Shown: positions 6,157 to 61,213, numbered from the stretch's first letter. The stretch is DNA of 64,000 bases from a virus (IMGVR_UViG_3300035698_009139); one strand, 5' to 3'. Notes: generated by a model not told the origin, from the sequence alone. Made by a program: numbers and translations.

Positions 6157-6609
6157 GTTTTTCGCTCATATTTATTCTCTGTGTGCGGTCGCTGTGGTAT
6201 TAGCGTCGGTGTTAGTGGGAACGTATTGGGGCACATACGGCTCTAGAGAAATGTTTCAGGTTAATACTACTGAGATAGTAGAGATGACGCCTAATAAATT
6301 GGTTATCGATCGCACCATAAAGAAGAGCATGATATGCCCAGTGGTATCCATTGATCATTATTTGATGTTTCCTGGCGGGGCCACACTGGGACTCAGAAAA
6401 GCCAGCATCATGCTGATTACAAAACTAATACGCTGGTAACAATCAGATTTGTATTTGCTCTCCCACCTCAAGTTATAGACGTGTCGGACAAATATGGCCA
6501 CCGAGTGAAGTTGGCATACAGCTGCAACCCCTTCCACCAGCCGGTGTATACGGTTGATTCTAATATTGTTTCAGTGCCACACAAGAAGTTGTCTACCCTT
6601 TCAAAATAG
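6149..6609 (+). pseudogene. Membrane-anchored lysis-region protein split by a frameshift
   Basis: TM-containing frame stops at 6439; the -1 frame is open from ~6356 to 6609 (..YSCNPFHQP..). Confidence 0.5.
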
Positions 6610-6617
6610 CGTATAAT
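6589..6617 (+). promoter_or_regulatory. Sigma70-type early/middle promoter
   Basis: TTGTCT-17nt-TATAAT just upstream of the primase. Confidence 0.7.
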
Positions 6618-6623
6618 ACTTGG

Positions 6624-7661
6624 ATGTCTGTAATGAATGATATCCAGTATGCTAATCTACTATCATCAAGACTAGAGCGATGGGTTGTCAAGAACAACAA
6701 CCCTTTTCTAGCCAATTTCCGTTGCCCAATATGTAGAGATAGCCAAAAGCGCAAGCATAAGAAACGTGGGTTCCTGTTTCAGGTATCTGACGGGCTGATG
6801 TTTAAGTGCCACAACTGTGGGTCGTCTTGGCCATTCTCTAAGCTACTAGAGACAATAGACCCACAAGCGCATAAAGAATATGTCATGGAGAAGTACAAAG
6901 GCACGGGCAAGAAACCTAAAGTGCTTATGCCGATGATGCCTCCCAAACCAGCATTCAAAAATCCAGATAGGTTGATAGACCGACTGATGGATCGGGTTGA
7001 TAGACTCGAGTCTGGGCATCAAGCAGTCGAGTACTGCGAACATCGACAAATTCCCAGAGAGCAATGGCATCGTCTATACTACGTAGACAATATCAGCAAC
7101 ATCAGCCAGCTGTCGGACAAGTATAGAGACCGGATCACCACCAAAGAACCTAGGCTGGTGATCCCTACGTTTGATGCAAACGATAAGCTGGTGCATATGA
7201 CCTGCAGAGCCTTCAGCGATGACCTGATCAGATATCTGACGGTCAATGTAGCAGAGCCGCCTCACCCACCTTTTGGTATAGACAAGTTTGATCGAACCAA
7301 GCGCGGATTCGTAGTAGAGGGGCCGCTGGATAGTCTGTTCGTTCCAAATAGTGTTGCAAGAGGTACGTCTGATTTGAAGGGTGCCATTCCTTGGGTGATA
7401 AAAGAAAATGTCACACTGATATTTGACAACCAGCCAAGAAATCGCGAAATTGTAAAACTAATGCAACGCCATATTGATCAAGGGTTTACGTTGATGATTT
7501 GGCCCGATGGCACAGGGCAAAAAGATATCAACAATATAATCATGGAGGGTGAAATGACGGCTAACCAGCTAATGACTGTCATAAATAATAACACGTTCAA
7601 CGGTCTAGCGTTGCAGGTTAAATTCAACAAGTGGAAGAAGATTGGTGATGGAATTTCTTAA
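6624..7661 (+). CDS. 61: DNA primase (T4 gp61-like)
   Basis: NFRCPICRDS..FKCHNCG zinc-binding domain, VVEGPLDSLF, FDNQPRN, KDIN. Confidence 0.93.
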   Translation: MSVMNDIQYANLLSSRLERWVVKNNNPFLANFRCPICRDSQKRKHKKRGFLFQVSDGLMFKCHNCGSSWPFSKLLETIDPQAHKEYVMEKYKGTGKKPKVLMPMMPPKPAFKNPDRLIDRLMDRVDRLESGHQAVEYCEHRQIPREQWHRLYYVDNISNISQLSDKYRDRITTKEPRLVIPTFDANDKLVHMTCRAFSDDLIRYLTVNVAEPPHPPFGIDKFDRTKRGFVVEGPLDSLFVPNSVARGTSDLKGAIPWVIKENVTLIFDNQPRNREIVKLMQRHIDQGFTLMIWPDGTGQKDINNIIMEGEMTANQLMTVINNNTFNGLALQVKFNKWKKIGDGIS

Positions 7662-23874: not shown

Positions 23875-24318
23875 ATGGATAAAGTTGAACTGGTTCCCAA
23901 CAACGAATTCATTCGCTTTGATAACGTGCTGGTGAATTTGTCCAAGGTAAGGATGATTCATTACCACAAGGGTACCTTAGGAATGAAGTTGCCGGTGGTA
24001 TCATGTGGATGGAATAAAGCCTTGTATTTGCTGGTTCGAGGTAAGAAATTGCCCTGGAGGATACAAACACAACACCACCACTTCAGCTCTGTAGGTGCTG
24101 AAGAATTCATAACGAAGTTGATAGACAGGGGCAGAATCGCCCGTGGCCGACTGCTCCAATTTAACTCTACTTACAGCAAGTCTGCGCTCACGATTAAGAT
24201 GTCTAGTGGATCACATTACTACATGAGCGGTAATGGAGATGATCTAAAAGATGCCTATGAAAAATTGACGGAGGCTTTGAACATATCATATACGCATATA
24301 TTCCCAAAAGAAGAATAA
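23875..24318 (+). CDS. Hypothetical protein
   Basis: Long + strand ORF within the gene run. Confidence 0.55.
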   Translation: MDKVELVPNNEFIRFDNVLVNLSKVRMIHYHKGTLGMKLPVVSCGWNKALYLLVRGKKLPWRIQTQHHHFSSVGAEEFITKLIDRGRIARGRLLQFNSTYSKSALTIKMSSGSHYYMSGNGDDLKDAYEKLTEALNISYTHIFPKEE

Positions 24319-24364
24319 TACCCTTCACGACACATAAATACCGGGACAATATAAGGGAGATATC

Positions 24365-24637
24365 GTGGAGCAGCATCTGACGTCAGAGCAGTGGAAAGAA
24401 CTCGACCCTCAAATGTACGAAAAGATGGTCCTAGAAATAGAATCAGGCTGGGCGTTGATGTTTCCGGATAAAGACTACAACAAATGCAAGATATGGGACG
24501 TCGTAGTGTTCCCAGTAACGGTGGAGCAGGATGGGTTCGCGGTTGCGATTGCTACCGGGATCCACGTATGGTTCGAAGACGAGCATATGCAGCCATTCTT
24601 CGTACCGTTGGTCCCACCCGTATATGATATGATCTAG
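24365..24637 (+). CDS. Hypothetical protein
   Basis: GGAG RBS, GTG start, CATAAATA late-like promoter upstream. Confidence 0.55.
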   Translation: MEQHLTSEQWKELDPQMYEKMVLEIESGWALMFPDKDYNKCKIWDVVVFPVTVEQDGFAVAIATGIHVWFEDEHMQPFFVPLVPPVYDMI

Positions 24638-24750
24638 TGTGCTAAAGTAACTGTTGTCTGGTAACCCATCTTGCTGTATATTATACAAACTGGTGAGGCG
24701 ATAGAAAAGACGCCAGAGAGCAAAAAAGTTGAGAAATCTGAAATTAAATG

Positions 24751-24779
24751 TTGTCTTAGGATGATAAATAACGTAAGAT
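24751..24779 (+). promoter_or_regulatory. Promoter of the tRNA/ncRNA island
   Basis: TTGTCT-17nt-TAAGAT with an A/T-rich upstream element. Confidence 0.7.
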
Positions 24780-24811
24780 AGTTAAAGTCAAGGAATGAAA
24801 CATTGGAGACA

Positions 24812-24907
24812 ATGATTAGAAATATTTGGAGCAAGATAGCTCTCAGCGAGAAAGATCACGGGTTTAATCCGTCGACTACTCGCCAGCAAGATGAATACAA
24901 AGGATAG
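24812..24907 (+). CDS. 31-aa leader peptide MIRNIWSKIALSEKDHGFNPSTTRQQDEYKG
   Basis: GGAG RBS; lies between promoter and terminator; stop codon overlaps the antiterminator arm. Confidence 0.65.
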   Translation: MIRNIWSKIALSEKDHGFNPSTTRQQDEYKG

Positions 24908-24965
24908 CTACGCACGAAGATAATTCGTTTGTAGCTCTCCAAGAGAAATCTTCGGAGAGTTTTTT
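24902..24965 (+). terminator. Attenuator: antiterminator 24902-24940 competing with intrinsic terminator 24935-24965
   Basis: GGATAGCTAC pairs with GTAGCTCTCC (9/10); CTCTCC-AAGA-GAAA-TCTT-C-GGAGAG-TTTTTT terminator. Confidence 0.7.
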
Positions 24966-25096
24966 AATACTAACGTGATAGCGGAACGAGGCTGCGACCA
25001 TCACGATAAGCACTAGGTCAAACGGGCGGCGACAAGGATGAAACCGGCGGGTGTTAACGTCGAGAGTAAAATCTGTCTGATTGTTGAATAATTATT

Positions 25097-25180
25097 TCAA
25101 CGTTGTAAGTGCTGTTCTAATAGGTAAGATACCGGGATACCGGTGATGGGGGTTCGATTCCCCCGGCGATGAAACGTTGA
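25097..25180 (+). ncRNA. tRNA-like RNA with a 4-nt anticodon loop and extended acceptor stem
   Basis: TCAACGTT/AACGTTGA closing stem, D-like arm, ACCGG-GATA-CCGGT, GGGGG-TTCGATT-CCCCC. Confidence 0.55.
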
Positions 25181-25413
25181 GATTGGGTGCCCTGAACCCC
25201 CAGCCCAAGAGCTGGTGACTGCACAACTCGCAGCCTAATAAATGCAGGGACAATTCAAAAGCGGCGGCCCCACCGGCCGGCGCTTACGTTCGGAGAGCAT
25301 GACTGCCTGCGTGGAGCTATAAATGGCTACGAAGCGGGGCGGTGCAAGTAGGGTTGCGATTAATAACTTGTATCAGTTGCTTAACCCCCCGGCTGATATT
25401 CTCCGAAACAAAT

Positions 25414-25487
25414 GCGAGTATGGCAGAATGGCTATGCGCTTGCCTTCCAAGCAAGACACCCCGGTTCGATTCCGGGTACCCGCTCCA
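25414..25487 (+). tRNA. tRNA-Gly(TCC)
   Basis: Cloverleaf, loop CT-TCC-AA, encoded TCCA end. Confidence 0.9.
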
Positions 25488-25555
25488 AGTTTGACCATCT
25501 GTATTCAGCCAGGTGAAAAGGCGTTTGGGACAACGCTGCTGTGTCAATTAAATTG

Positions 25556-25630
25556 CGCGGGGAGAGCTGCTGTGCTCCGCCCAGGCTCATACCCTGAGGC
25601 TTCTAGGTTCAATTCCTGGCTCCGCAACCA
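25556..25630 (+). tRNA. tRNA-Met(CAT), initiator-like
   Basis: CGCGGGG/CTCCGCA with C1-A72 mismatch, CT-CAT-AC loop, TTCAA T-loop, ACCA. Confidence 0.75.
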
Positions 25631-25644
25631 ACAAAAGGTGATAT

Positions 25645-25923
25645 ATGACAGTGCATTATGTGAAATCGTGGTCGTATCTATATGCGGCCGCCGTGGCTGG
25701 TGTCAAGACACATGACATCAGAGACAGAACCGAACGGGATTATAAAGTCGGCGACACTTTGGTGTTGCAGGAGTTTGATCAATCCACCGGCCGGTACTCC
25801 GGCCGGGAACAACGATTCGAAATCACATACATTACTGATCGCGACGTACCATGTGCACTATCCAGTGCGGTGCTGGCGCGGGACTATTGTATCCTAAGTA
25901 TTACCCTTTTAGGAGAGGGATAG
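25645..25923 (+). CDS. ASCH/DUF3850-like (PUA-fold) protein
   Basis: GVKTHDIR..DYKVGDTLVLQEFD..YSGR. Confidence 0.75.
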   Translation: MTVHYVKSWSYLYAAAVAGVKTHDIRDRTERDYKVGDTLVLQEFDQSTGRYSGREQRFEITYITDRDVPCALSSAVLARDYCILSITLLGEG

Positions 25924-25965
25924 AGGCAAGTTGGCGGGAATGAACTTTAAACCGCACATTATTAA

Positions 25966-26036
25966 CGCGTTTTAGTCTAAGTTAGGGCAGCACCTGTACG
26001 GGTGCAGGTGCAGTATCGAATCTGCGAACGCGGCCA
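25966..26036 (+). ncRNA. Atypical tRNA-like RNA (6/8-nt anticodon loop, TATCGAAT T-loop)
   Basis: CGCGTTT/GAACGCG-GCCA, GCACC-TGTACG-GGTGC, GCAG-TATCGAAT-CTGC. Confidence 0.65.
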
Positions 26037-26042
26037 AAGGTT

Positions 26043-26182
26043 GGCGAGGTGAATGCGCCCATGATCTATATCACACCAGGGATCCTTAATGTGATGTTCG
26101 CCATGGTCTACGTAAGTGGAGGCATGTTTCACCGCTCCTGGGTTCGATCGCCAGGAGAGCAGGTTCGACTCCTGTCGCCCGC
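26043..26182 (+). ncRNA. tRNA-like RNA with a greatly extended D-position arm and two T-loop hairpins
   Basis: GGCGA/TCGCC, GGTGAA/TTCACC, TCCTGG-GTTCGATCG-CCAGGA, GCAGG-TTCGACT-CCTGT. Confidence 0.5.
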
Positions 26183-26190
26183 ATTATTAT

Positions 26191-26262
26191 GCGAGTATCG
26201 TCTAAGTTAGGACGGCGTCCCTTTGAGGGCGTTATGGAGTATCGAATCTTCTACTCGCACCA
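26191..26262 (+). ncRNA. Atypical tRNA-like RNA, paralogue of 25966-26036
   Basis: GCGAGTA/TACTCGC-ACCA, same GTCTAAGTTAGG D-arm, CTTTGA loop, GGAG-TATCGAAT-CTTC. Confidence 0.7.
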
Positions 26263-26335
26263 CTTATAGTGGGGGCGCCGCCATGATATGTTTAAGCCGG
26301 CAACGGTGGTAACACGAGGCGCATTTTCTAATTGA

Positions 26336-26423
26336 TCCTGTCGGGCTGGCTTGGTGAAGGCTACGGACTGTTAATCCGATGACACCTACGGGTGGTGAGG
26401 TTCGAATCCTCAGGCAGGAGCCA
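26336..26423 (+). tRNA. tRNA-Asn(GTT) with long variable arm
   Basis: TCCTGTC/GGCAGGA-GCCA, CGGA-CTGTTAA-TCCG, extra hairpin before the T-arm. Confidence 0.8.
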
Positions 26424-26433
26424 AATTCAACGT

Positions 26434-26507
26434 GTCGGTTTAGTTCAATGGTAGAACAGCTGCTTCCAAACCAGAAGACGTGGGTTCGATTCCTACAACC
26501 CTCGCCA
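26434..26507 (+). tRNA. tRNA-Trp(CCA), imperfect stems
   Basis: Canonical D and T arms, TT-CCA-AA loop, GCCA end; acceptor mismatches. Confidence 0.7.
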
Positions 26508-26815
26508 AAGTTTTGCGAACGCCTCCGTTGTGCGGCGTCTCATCTGGTCATGGGAAAGATGGGCGGACCAGTGCCCATTGGAACGCAAATTAAATTTGTA
26601 AGAACCACCTGCAGGTGCATCCCGGTCGAAAGCCCGGGCCCCGCAGCGACTATCGAGGTCAGGTTCTCGCAATCGATGCCGAAAACGGATAGCGTAACTA
26701 CCTCTGATGAGTATAGTTGCAACTGTACAATTCAAGTACCGGGTGAATGGGACCGGGGCGGCAAACACTCATTGGCGGCTCCAAACCGCAGGCATCGAAA
26801 AGTTATAAATACCTC

Positions 26816-27148
26816 ATGGAAAAGAAGACGTTCAAAGAGAGGTATATGATGGCTGTTAAAATAACTACAGCAACACTCGCGCTGATCGGTATGCTGGTCA
26901 CTGGATGGCTCTCAATGGGTTTATCTACACCCGTAATGAGCCATGAATTGGCTCCCATCATACAAGTAGCGGGCAGTTATCTGGACGACAAGATTCACAA
27001 TTTACGCCGAGAGTCGTTAGACATTCGCGGCCGCCTAGCTGATGGCGTTAAGAATTCTCAGTACAAAAGATTGCTCAACGACCGCTTGCAGCAGATCAAC
27101 ACAGAGATCCTCAAGCTGCAAAGGCAGTCTAAACAAATCAAACGTTGA
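26816..27148 (+). CDS. Hypothetical membrane-anchored protein
   Basis: TATAAATA late promoter at 26804-26811; TM helix then coiled coil. Confidence 0.6.
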   Translation: MEKKTFKERYMMAVKITTATLALIGMLVTGWLSMGLSTPVMSHELAPIIQVAGSYLDDKIHNLRRESLDIRGRLADGVKNSQYKRLLNDRLQQINTEILKLQRQSKQIKR

Positions 27149-27230: not shown

Positions 27231-27306
27231 GGCCCCATAGTTTAATGGTTAGAATAATGGTTTTTCATGCCGCAGATCACGGGTTCGATTCCCTGTGGGG
27301 CCGCCA
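27231..27306 (+). tRNA. tRNA-Glu(TTC)
   Basis: GGCCCCA/TGGGGCC-GCCA, TT-TTC-AT loop. Confidence 0.8.
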
Positions 27307-27464
27307 ATACAGGAGCGCACAATGGACATAAAAGTCCGGCCGATGACGGCCGAAGAGATGCGCTACATGGAAAAGCTGACACATCGGATACACGAAAGTG
27401 CCGAAGAAGAAGCTAAGAAACGCACCCGCAAATGGGGTGGAGCCAAGAAGAGCGAAACTAGCAG

Positions 27465-27493
27465 TTGACTAGATCCTGTTAGTCGTGTATATT
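27465..27493 (+). promoter_or_regulatory. Sigma70-type promoter for the large ncRNA
   Basis: TTGACT-17nt-TATATT. Confidence 0.75.
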
Positions 27494-27499
27494 ATCTAA

Positions 27500-28520
27500 A
27501 TCGACAGACACAAAACCGACTTTCCTTTGTCATGGACTTCGTAGTGAATGTACTGGATCCGTAACCAGATGTCTGTTAGAATCGGCAGTTTGCAGTCAGT
27601 CTGCCTCCTCTCACTAGCTTCGGCTTGAGGAAATCAAACACTGACCTGAGAGTAGTAATAGTAGAGTAATGGCGGTATGACGTCATTAGGATAACTGCAG
27701 CAATGCAGCCAAAGTTAGGACTTCACAGCCTAGCGCCAGAAATGGCCCTTTCATACAAGCTCAGATCTCCTGGCGACAGGTTATCACCGAAGGGTGGTAA
27801 TAAGATCAGACAGTCAGCTGTGTGTCCGAAAGGATACTCCCCAGGCCATCCGGTGAGGGGGAAGCGGCCCGCAAGCTGCACCGCAGATGCAAACTGACCG
27901 AAGATTGATGATTAATGAGTAGCCATAACAAGAGCACGAGCGATTTCAAGTAAGTGCAAGTGGCAGGACAATCGGTGATGGAATACCCCTTCTTAGGAAT
28001 GTGGTGTTACTGATTCGAGAAGGACAGCGGAGTACCTGGGAGGGGAAAGGCAAGACGGTGTGTTGTATTTTGTCGGTAACAACCGGCGAAGCAACTGAGA
28101 CAGCACATCGCAGTGATTTCTAAGAAGCTCGTGGAGAGCATCTGCCTTTAGCAGAAGTGGTGGTTCGATCCTACCTCTTTATTTAAAACGCAAAGCCTGT
28201 CTCAGTACGTTGTTAAAGTCGTCTAATCCTAGAATCCTCGGATAATCTAGGTTGCGGATCCTCGCAAGGGAAAAGCAATTGATGGCCAGAAGGTCGGAAA
28301 CTTCTAGCGGAGTTGTACTGCTCGCAAGGCAGACGGTTCGAAGGCTGTTGAGTAGCAACGTGCGATAAGTGAAATGCCACACTTTAAAAAAGGCGACGTT
28401 GTTCGCAGACTGCCCAGATCCTCGCGGAGGGGTAGTGGATAACCGGTTAACCTAGATTGCCAATTTAGGGTACGACTGAAGGTGCGGACGTGAAACGTGT
28501 AATCTCAGCGTTCTATCGAT
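27500..28520 (+). ncRNA. ~1-kb highly structured ncRNA, GOLLD-like
   Basis: No credible ORF; own promoter and downstream hairpin; long-range helices 27517-23/28215-21, 27586-94/27888-96, 28094-103/28197-206; GNRA-capped stems; lies among tRNAs. GOLLD identity not verified. Confidence 0.65.
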
Positions 28521-29129: not shown

Positions 29130-29300
29130 ATGACTAAACTTCACATGTCTGTGGATGTTGCACCCAATACGATGGTATCAATGACCAAAGATGCGTACGA
29201 CGAAATGCAGGAGGATCTGCAAGTGTTGTATGCTCTACAGGCGGCCGGCGTGGATAGCTGGGATGGTTACGACTTCGCAATGGAGTCAATAGAAGATTAA
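29130..29300 (+). CDS. Small phage hypothetical protein
   Basis: GGAGG RBS; LQAAGVDSWDGY motif common in phage small proteins. Confidence 0.6.
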   Translation: MTKLHMSVDVAPNTMVSMTKDAYDEMQEDLQVLYALQAAGVDSWDGYDFAMESIED

Positions 29301-60138: not shown

Positions 60139-60551
60139 TGACAATTGCAGATGAACTCCGGAAAACAACAGACGCCAAGAAGGATGCCGACCTGAAGATC
60201 GTACGTGAAAAGAGATCTGCCAGGCTAAAGCAAGCAAAAGCGGATGCGGTTAAGGCGATGAACCGCATCCGCCGCATGGCTCCGAAGTTGATGGAAGAGG
60301 CCGCAGCCGCTGGTAAGACCGAGGTTGTTGTTTTCAGCAGTTATAAACAGCCCAGTGGTGCGTACCTAGACCCAGGTAACCAACTGAATTATCCGCTGGA
60401 ACAGTTCGCTAAAAAGCGGGGGTTAAATGTCCGCGTCCGATCAACTGAGGCCTGTGAAATGGGCCCTGAGAGTTATTCATACTCACTGTCCTGGGACGCC
60501 CCTCGACGAGAAGACCCAAGATCATATGAGAATTATGTTGTCCGCGGATGA
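60135..60551 (+). CDS. Hypothetical protein
   Basis: GAGG RBS. Confidence 0.55.
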   Translation: MMTIADELRKTTDAKKDADLKIVREKRSARLKQAKADAVKAMNRIRRMAPKLMEEAAAAGKTEVVVFSSYKQPSGAYLDPGNQLNYPLEQFAKKRGLNVRVRSTEACEMGPESYSYSLSWDAPRREDPRSYENYVVRG

Positions 60552-60572
60552 ATAATGGTGTATTATAAGTAT

Positions 60573-61013
60573 ACTTACGATGTTGATGTGAAACTCAACG
60601 CTAGACAGGACCTGGGGGCAGTACCCAGCGCCTCCACCATAAGCAACTGTGGTTCGTTGATCCCAGCCAAATGGGATGAAACCATAGAGAGATAAGATAC
60701 CCTGAAGCGGGGCAGGAGAGCATGATGAAGCTTTCGAGGGCCGTGGATTCGAGAAAGGTTCCTAGCGGAATCCAGTAACGTATCGAGAGTATCGAATTCC
60801 TGGAAAGGGGTATTCGCCTGGAACAGGATGCCGCAGTTGTTTATGATGGGGGCGAAATAGGATCGACTGTTAGCTAATAGGTAAACGGAGTCGTCCGGCG
60901 CAAGCTCGGTTAACGCAAGACAGAACTAAACGCAAACGATAATGCGGTACTTGCCATTGCAGCGTAAGCTGTAGTGCGGGGCTTGGGGAGCGCCTGGCAA
61001 CAGAAGCTCCCTA
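60573..61013 (+). ncRNA. ssrA: Two-piece (permuted) tmRNA, tag ANDNAVLAIAA
   Basis: Acceptor piece ends GGCAGTAC-loop..CGCCTCC-ACCA (60639); coding piece starts GGGGGCG (60848) giving G3:U70; tag frame 60932-60967. Confidence 0.92.
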
Positions 61014-61213
61014 CTTTCATTATGAGGTCAAATGTCAAACCCAAAATATTACAGCATGTCTAATGGCGTTAACAAACCGCTAGTAGATTTTACGGCACCC
61101 AGTGACGCCGTTGCTTTTGGTCGGGCAGTTGGTGTAGGTGCTGAGTACTGTGTCCGCCTTGATGCCAAACAATGTATGATGTACACAGTTTTAGAATATG
61201 GATGGCAAACAAA

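Follow-up and report, generated by a model that had tools for sequence, protein, structure and literature searches.

A promoter-driven leader and intrinsic terminator ahead of a phage tRNA block: a possible translation-coupled gate

Results and discussion

The RNA island and its setting

The DNA analysed here (the window, 64,000 nucleotides in all, from IMGVR_UViG_3300035698_009139) comes from a large uncultured phage whose genes all lie on the plus strand; its gene content includes NrdA, NAMPT, a T4-type RNase H, a ligase and a sugar-nucleotide pathway. The window also holds an RNA island of 25 tRNAs (ARAGORN), together with further tRNA matches (Rfam) and a GOLLD RNA (28055-28511, 163 bits) that sits inside the island about 590 nt downstream of a promoter at 27465; a two-piece permuted tmRNA of the alphaproteobacterial type lies further downstream (60534-61015). 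Most tRNAs of the island finish in CCAATT, followed immediately by GAGGAG and an ATG, and because these ends directly abut the next start, tRNAs and small genes are tightly interleaved. Two small island ORFs have family matches, one to the T7 gp5.9-like RecBCD inhibitor (29130-29297, E = 7e-14) and one to DUF3850 (25645-25920, E = 5e-16). A 57-amino-acid ORF between tRNA-Glu and the GOLLD promoter (27295-27468) has the highest coding score among the small island ORFs tested (0.275, for the part from ATG 27322) and is probably a real gene. At the head of the island lie two promoters, a short ORF and an intrinsic terminator, and it is this arrangement that we describe below.

Tandem promoters at the island head

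Promoters of one sigma-70-type family recur through the window, with the form AAnTAAnTG, TTGACY or TTGTCT, a 17-nt spacer ending in G, and TATRAT. Sites of this family were found at 6589, 21512, 24654, 24751, 27145, 27465, 33766, 36424, 38750, 48759, 50925, 56999, 57653 and 60538, all on the plus strand, and they precede the GOLLD RNA (27465), several tRNAs and the permuted tmRNA (60538). The pattern TTGTCT-N16-18-TANNNT occurs eight times (1.4 expected), and a weight-matrix scan of the 64 kb returned 24 sites of at least 12 bits on the plus strand and three on the minus strand. Near the first of these sites, a gene starting at 6624 (6612-6626) has its ATG 7 nt past a family -10 box (TATAAT, 6612-17), has no Shine-Dalgarno sequence and is probably expressed from a leaderless mRNA.

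Two adjacent plus-strand members lie before the leader. The first, P1 (24644-24682), comprises an A-rich upstream block, a -35 hexamer TTGTCT (24654-59), a 17-nt spacer ending in G and a -10 hexamer TATATT (24677-82), with a predicted start at about 24689. The second, P2 (24741-24779), consists of aaattaaatg, TTGTCT (24751-56), a 17-nt spacer, G and TAAGAT (24774-79), with a predicted start at about 24786. Scored with a weight matrix trained without these two local sites, P1 reached 27.8 bits and P2 24.1 bits, placing both within the best eight sites of the 64 kb; no site on the minus strand scored as high as P2. P2 is the TTGTCT-17-TAAGAT promoter of the preliminary description of this locus, which is thereby corroborated on held-out data and joined by a tandem partner upstream. 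The hexamers of P2 by themselves amount to an 8/12 match, under the threshold of a stock promoter scan that performs at chance level.

An intrinsic terminator and the block behind it

The leader ends in an intrinsic terminator (24935-24965, plus strand; CUCUCCAAGA-GAAA-UCUU(C)GGAGAG, then U6), in which the stem (24935-59) has a GAAA loop and one bulged C, is followed by T6 (24960-65), and has a predicted energy of -11.6 kcal/mol. This terminator, also proposed earlier, is one of four stringent plus-strand matches in the 64 kb when scanned with a stricter procedure of our own, which we used in place of a stock terminator scan that was at chance level overall and missed this element because its stem is bulged. 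It is placed 28 nt after the stop codon of the leader ORF described below and 298 nt after the previous called gene.

Immediately upstream is hairpin A (24902-24940, plus strand), with a core of 11 bp (24907-35) and an extension that pairs 24902-06 with 24936-40. The core is compatible with the terminator, and the extension competes for the terminator 5' arm. The complementarity on which the preliminary description built its antiterminator is real: GGATAGCTAC (24902-11), which contains the stop codon TAG, matches GTAGCTCTCC (24931-40) at nine of ten positions, with a mismatch at T24905/C24937. As a two-hairpin module, the terminator and hairpin A are more stable than expected (z = -4.5).

Beyond the terminator, the plus strand carries a block (24966-27144) of structured and tRNA-like RNAs, tRNA-Gly/Met/Asn/Trp, the DUF3850 gene and a 133-amino-acid ORF, with five tRNAs in these 2.2 kb. 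The weight-matrix scan of 24960-27145 found no family promoter, although promoters of other classes are possible there; the best score was only 7.1 bits (compared with 13-29 for members), and the phage family therefore has no member in the first 2.2 kb of the island. The next site that resembles a promoter lies at 27145, ahead of tRNA-Glu. The gating of the tRNA island suggested earlier fits this first block, up to the site at 27145. Two further observations concern the same stretch. The first RNA past the terminator is a tRNA-like element (25096-25180, z = -2.7) with a perfect T arm, GGGGGTTCGATTCCCCC (25148-64), for which ARAGORN makes no tRNA call. In addition, two assemblies of the same phage, in separate records, both break at 25034, just past the terminator, and the cause may be a repeat or variation within the population downstream of that point.

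Strong promoters, a short leader, a genuine terminator and a promoter-less tRNA block very probably constitute a transcriptional gate. How such a gate would be set is a separate question, and one answer is timing. Early transcripts would stop at 24965 until an antitermination factor (from phage or host) or a modified polymerase acted, as at lambda pR'-6S RNA-tR' with Q, or through N and nut. Lambda Q and N exemplify antitermination as a common way for phages to time delayed-early genes, and the architecture fits (a strong promoter, an RNA of about 180 nt, a terminator and a long promoter-less stretch), matching the strong promoter, short terminated RNA of about 190 nt and read-through-dependent long operon at lambda pR'. 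The lambda gate differs, however, in being opened by a promoter-loaded protein, and the lambda 6S RNA is untranslated. No lambda-type factor or nut/boxA site was found here: there was no boxA-like match in 24640-25420 and no Rfam family match in the leader, the sequence just past the terminator (24966-25100) shows no more structure than its shuffles do (z = +1.5), and no antiterminator gene was identified within the window. A timing gate would also leave unexplained the ORF geometry and the switch score described below, and we regard it as unlikely.

A short ORF fills the leader

The leader ORF (24812-24907, plus strand) has 31 codons, or 34 if read from TTG 24803, encodes MIRNIWSKIALSEKDHGFNPSTTRQQDEYKG and stops at TAG 24905-07. 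The RBS and 31-codon ORF of the preliminary description are present as proposed, with 31 sense codons, 18 amino-acid types and 25 distinct codons, among them AAA/AAG, GAA/GAG, CAA/CAG, ATA, AGA, GGA and TGG. The 'pan-codon' character that had been read into this composition is ordinary: between 25 and 33% of 31-codon stretches reach at least 25 distinct codons, at least 18 amino-acid types in 31 codons corresponds to a tail of about 5%, and the codons at which stalling alters the predicted fold (see below) are not rare.

More informative is the position of the ORF. An ATG ORF of at least 31 codons is to be expected somewhere in the 776-nt non-coding head and leader (P = 0.8), but one of at least 25 codons that stops within 10 nt of a hairpin foot is not (P = 0.04), and still less so with a Shine-Dalgarno-like motif added (P = 0.005). 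The translation-start region (24790-24814, plus strand) contains AAGGA (24790-94), the in-frame TTG (24803), GGAGA (24805-09) and ATG (24812). The gap from GGAG to the ATG is 3 nt, compared with 5-8 nt (mode 7) in the phage's own genes, and the Shine-Dalgarno sequence and AUG are held in a 5-bp GAGA hairpin (24801-14, -3 to -4 kcal/mol); the alternative start, TTG 24803, has AAGGA 8 nt upstream. The codon-usage score of the ORF lies in the range of real genes and in the 1.2% tail relative to off-frame ORFs, and its coding score is not significant against composition-matched nulls. The ORF is absent from gene-finder calls on identical contigs, and no homologues of the peptide and no PHROG family matches were found; three HMMER matches were not counted as homologues because they are long proteins in which the aligned stretch was none or 13 residues.

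Several of these features would also be expected if the promoters and terminator simply delimited a structured, untranslated small RNA of about 175-270 nt, with the ORF incidental. The leader folds into five successive hairpins (24785/6-24965/70, z = -3.4 to -4.0), the island is rich in non-coding RNAs (GOLLD, tRNA-like elements), the Shine-Dalgarno sequence and AUG lie in a hairpin, gene finders do not call the ORF, and 12 nt of the leader are identical to part of the tRNA-Glu T-arm region (P about 0.05). Against this, an ORF that fills the leader and ends at the hairpin foot has a chance of 0.5-4%, the ORF part taken by itself has only mild structure (z = -1.5 to -2.5), no Rfam family matches, and no convincing target was found, the best complementarity being 13 nt (0.17 expected). 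We judge this explanation improbable, a little more so than a timing gate. Nor was any riboswitch or T-box match found in 24600-25450 at E values up to 10.

The 12-nt identity itself, AGATCACGGGTT, joins the central hairpin of the leader (24853-24864) to the variable/T-arm region of tRNA-Glu (27274-27285), and it is followed in the leader by a T-loop-like GGGTTTAATCC and then a CGCCA end. We considered and rejected the leader as a decayed tRNA: the identity is borderline, there is no cloverleaf and no tRNA model matches.

A different account takes the ORF as a small early gene that encodes a 31-34-amino-acid peptide, is driven by promoters of its own and is closed by an ordinary terminator that leaks in part. 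A fixed fraction of polymerases would read through this terminator into the first tRNA block, and translation would then have no regulatory role. The spacing of the terminator is compatible with this, since the two clean other terminators lie 18-21 nt past protein stop codons and the present one 28 nt past the ORF stop. The above-chance ORF geometry is equally expected of a gene, and a bulged hairpin of moderate stability followed by only U6 fits partial efficiency. A constitutive internal attenuator of this kind, a partly efficient terminator that fixes the ratio of upstream to downstream products, operates at rplL-rpoB, although there it lies between long operon genes, as opposed to 150-270 nt after dedicated promoters here. 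Such a constitutive valve would give no reason for two of the strongest promoters to stand right before a terminator that shields tRNA genes, and its peptide would be one without homologues. We return to this account below, where the folding results bear on it.

Free leader RNA is predicted to terminate

The preliminary description envisaged three segments, in which the helix 24902-11 : 24931-40 is the sole antiterminator of a pan-codon leader, so that transcription would continue on RNA that is untranslated or carries a stalled ribosome, and would end only if a ribosome stood at the stop codon. We evaluated this rule by folding. The minimum-energy fold places hairpin A (24907-35, 11 bp) directly beside the terminator, at -22.9 kcal/mol. 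The fold with the extended helix reaches -19.3 kcal/mol and contests only 24936-40 (5 nt shared with the terminator); it therefore loses by 3.6 kcal/mol and is predicted to be displaced over a barrier of 5-6 kcal/mol. In free RNA the probability of the terminator is 0.78-0.87. Because the helix loses to the terminator, naked RNA is predicted to terminate, the opposite of the earlier rule, and the helix would fail as an antiterminator by itself.

What remains in favour of the three-segment scheme is that the 9/10 complementarity exists, that the extended helix forms first in transcription (-19.3 kcal/mol for RNA ending at 24947), and that a ribosome at the stop yields a terminator probability of 1.0. 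Its short overlap with the terminator, the advantage of the core hairpin plus terminator, the 78-87% terminator fold of free RNA and codon diversity at the level of chance all count against it, and we regard it as the least likely of the explanations weighed here. That both hairpins stand side by side in the minimum-energy fold is also what a constitutive, partly leaky terminator would show.

A four-segment switch in silico

We then computed partition functions for the leader as transcribed from P2, with a ribosome-sized mask (P-site -12 to +15) placed at different positions. Two hairpins upstream of hairpin A enter the calculation. Hairpin 2 (24828-24843, plus strand; GGAGC / GCUCU) has the 3' arm CUCUC (24840-44), which can pair with GAGAG (24955-59) once its 5' arm is covered. 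Hairpin 3 (24846-24883, plus strand; segments 1:2) is formed by GCGAG...CUCGC with an upper stem ACGGGU/AUCCGU and lies entirely within the ORF; once it is opened, the candidate antiterminator strand CUCGCCAGCAAGAU (24879-24892, plus strand) pairs with 24948-59 (11 bp, interrupted).

With the mask at P-sites 24818-24 and 24836-60 (codons 3-5 and 9-17), the probability of the terminator falls to 0.02-0.09. In the alternative fold, CUCGCCAGCAAGAU encloses the extended hairpin A by pairing with 24948-59; this fold reaches -26.0 kcal/mol, the terminator fold -22.9 kcal/mol, and the barriers to entry are 5.0 and 4.7. With the mask at the stop codon the probability of the terminator is 1.00, as the preliminary description had anticipated for a ribosome that reaches the stop. 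Its further expectation, that stalling anywhere upstream permits read-through, survives for codons 3-5 and 9-17, where masks abolish the terminator in silico, and not for upstream positions in general. Codons 3-18 are all different save ATT and AGC (twice each); within the stall window, regulatory codons for a single amino acid do not form a run, and rare codons are not enriched.

To express the effect as one number we used a switch score, which was defined after the effect was seen and which is 0.53 for the leader. One in 406 dinucleotide shuffles and one in 322 structure-preserving variants scored as high, and none of 348 natural phage segments set in front of these same hairpins did, which makes about 2 in 1,076 controls of the three kinds; under a constitutive terminator this score must be put down to chance. 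The pattern is stable from 5 to 37 C, over ribosome footprint sizes and over dangle models, with free-RNA terminator probabilities of 0.17-0.70 when dangles are off. The energy gaps of the switch are only 1.2-3.1 kcal/mol, inside the error of the energy model, and in raw complementarity to the terminator 3' arm the leader is unexceptional (P about 0.3).

In transcripts that begin at P1 the switch is lost at equilibrium through pairing of 24690-97 with 24879-86, and this loss favours the constitutive account. The predicted 5' end of the P1 transcript, CUGGUGAG (24690-24697), is complementary both to CGCCAG (24711-24716) and to CUCGCCAG (24879-24886) of the antiterminator strand.

Two kinds of control on known attenuators bear on how these results are read. 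In a truncation test, where the RNA is cut before the 3' arm of the terminator and which thus tests sequestration of the 5' arm, E. coli trpL, thrL and pheL as positive controls show their switch, whereas the phage leader shows none, its 5' arm being about 0.8 paired in every state. In the equilibrium test, of six known attenuators pheL was recovered clearly and thrL weakly, and the others were not recovered; the test is specific rather than sensitive. The four-segment switch is, in these models, statistically unusual and energetically marginal.

Comparison with other phages

The preliminary description called for a conserved leader ORF and terminator upstream of related tRNA arrays. Five other contigs represent the same phage and are 100% identical to the window, and for that reason there is no covariation to read. 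No DNA match to 24300-25400 was found in GenBank phages, in which the best ligase identity is 35%, and no leader-like DNA was found in 886 kb of related loci. The upstream ORFs of 90 and 147/150 amino acids have no relatives in IMG/VR or among 5.8 billion proteins, the same phage apart. Relatives defined by ligase (44-46% identity) have no adjacent tRNA island, none of the records examined for those defined by NrdA (up to 76%) contains a tRNA island, and a metagenome scan for DUF3850 yielded 62 loci, with tRNAs on one short contig only and leader-like DNA in none.

The closest phage other than this one to have a comparable loose tRNA island is IMGVR_UViG_3300044981_000022 (G004), of 118.8 kb, with direct terminal repeats, 27 tRNAs and identities of 71% for DUF3850 and 49% for NAMPT. 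Two tandem promoters also stand at its island head, with neither a terminator nor a leader ORF, and two more distant phages have no terminator before their tRNA arrays. The proposed conservation is thus absent at the heads in three distant relatives, and islands of this kind therefore do not generally have the device; this evidence is weak because the island heads are not homologous. The absence of the leader device from every relative is nonetheless a point for a constitutive terminator. As a separate observation, the 27-tRNA island of G004 contains a bacterial type A RNase P RNA (locus L033:12848-13186, about 64847-65185 of the contig), which scores 100.2 bits against a gathering score of 100.

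Translation-coupled attenuation as the leading explanation

The explanation that we rank first is attenuation of the trp/phe type, in which four leader segments and translation of the ORF would set read-through; on the folding models it is plausible and no firmer than that, and the constitutive leak, itself a tentative proposal, is nearly as likely. Under translation-coupled attenuation, transcripts from the tandem early promoters (starts at about 24689 and 24786) would carry a leader of about 175-270 nt with the 31-34-codon ORF and then the terminator at 24935-65. As the next 2.2 kb lack a promoter of their own, the RNAs encoded there would be made only by read-through. In naked RNA, or with a ribosome at or past the stop codon, hairpins 2 and 3 would hold 24840-44 and 24879-83, and the terminator would form. 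A ribosome lagging over codons 3-5 or 9-17 as polymerase reaches the U tract would open one of the two hairpins; the freed strand (mainly 24879-92) would pair with the terminator 3' arm (24948-59), the extended hairpin A would hold the 5' arm, and transcription would run on into the tRNA genes. Because no codon is repeated, the input would be the overall speed of translation and not the supply of one amino acid, and slow decoding would raise transcription of tRNA genes, a negative feedback.

This scheme parallels the E. coli pheL-pheA and trpL-trpE attenuators, which likewise combine a promoter with a short ORF, an intrinsic terminator and downstream genes that lack a promoter of their own; hairpins within or adjacent to the ORF, from which a stalled ribosome frees a terminator-defeating strand; and termination both in free RNA and with a ribosome at the stop. 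In the equilibrium test, pheL switches at 7 of 14 stall positions and the phage leader at 14 of 30. The phage leader differs in having no run of codons for one amino acid, in that its freed strand would capture the 3' arm of the terminator and not the 5' arm, in its smaller energy margins, and in regulating tRNA genes in place of an amino-acid pathway. Also comparable are pheM-pheST and the effects of hisR and hisT on his attenuation, where leader-peptide attenuation is applied to a component of the translation apparatus and takes tRNA supply or quality as its signal; these systems are chromosomal and sense one tRNA species through repeated codons, whereas the phage leader has no repeated codon and its output would be a set of tRNA genes.

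A more specific reading, to which we attach less confidence than to translation-coupled attenuation as such, is that the leader may serve as a codon-unspecific sensor of translation speed, by which the virus would autoregulate an on-demand supply of tRNAs. Ribosomes would lag where the tRNA pool mismatches the codons of the phage, or where defence nucleases have depleted or cleaved tRNAs; the lag would let polymerase bypass the terminator and switch on the phage tRNA genes, and once decoding had recovered the gate would close.

The tRNA sets that large phages carry are now known to act against defences that target tRNAs. To our knowledge, the control of expression of such sets is essentially unstudied, and a full-text literature search found no report of attenuation before a phage tRNA cluster. 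Even the conservative reading is of use: with a cleanly defined promoter family, a terminator and a tRNA block that lacks such a promoter, it allows the transcription plan of RNA islands of this kind to be tested directly on a reporter fragment of 350 bp. Were the gate translation-coupled, it would count among the rare attenuators that lack runs of regulatory codons, and it would be the first case of a virus that measures the decoding capacity of its host to set its own tRNA output.
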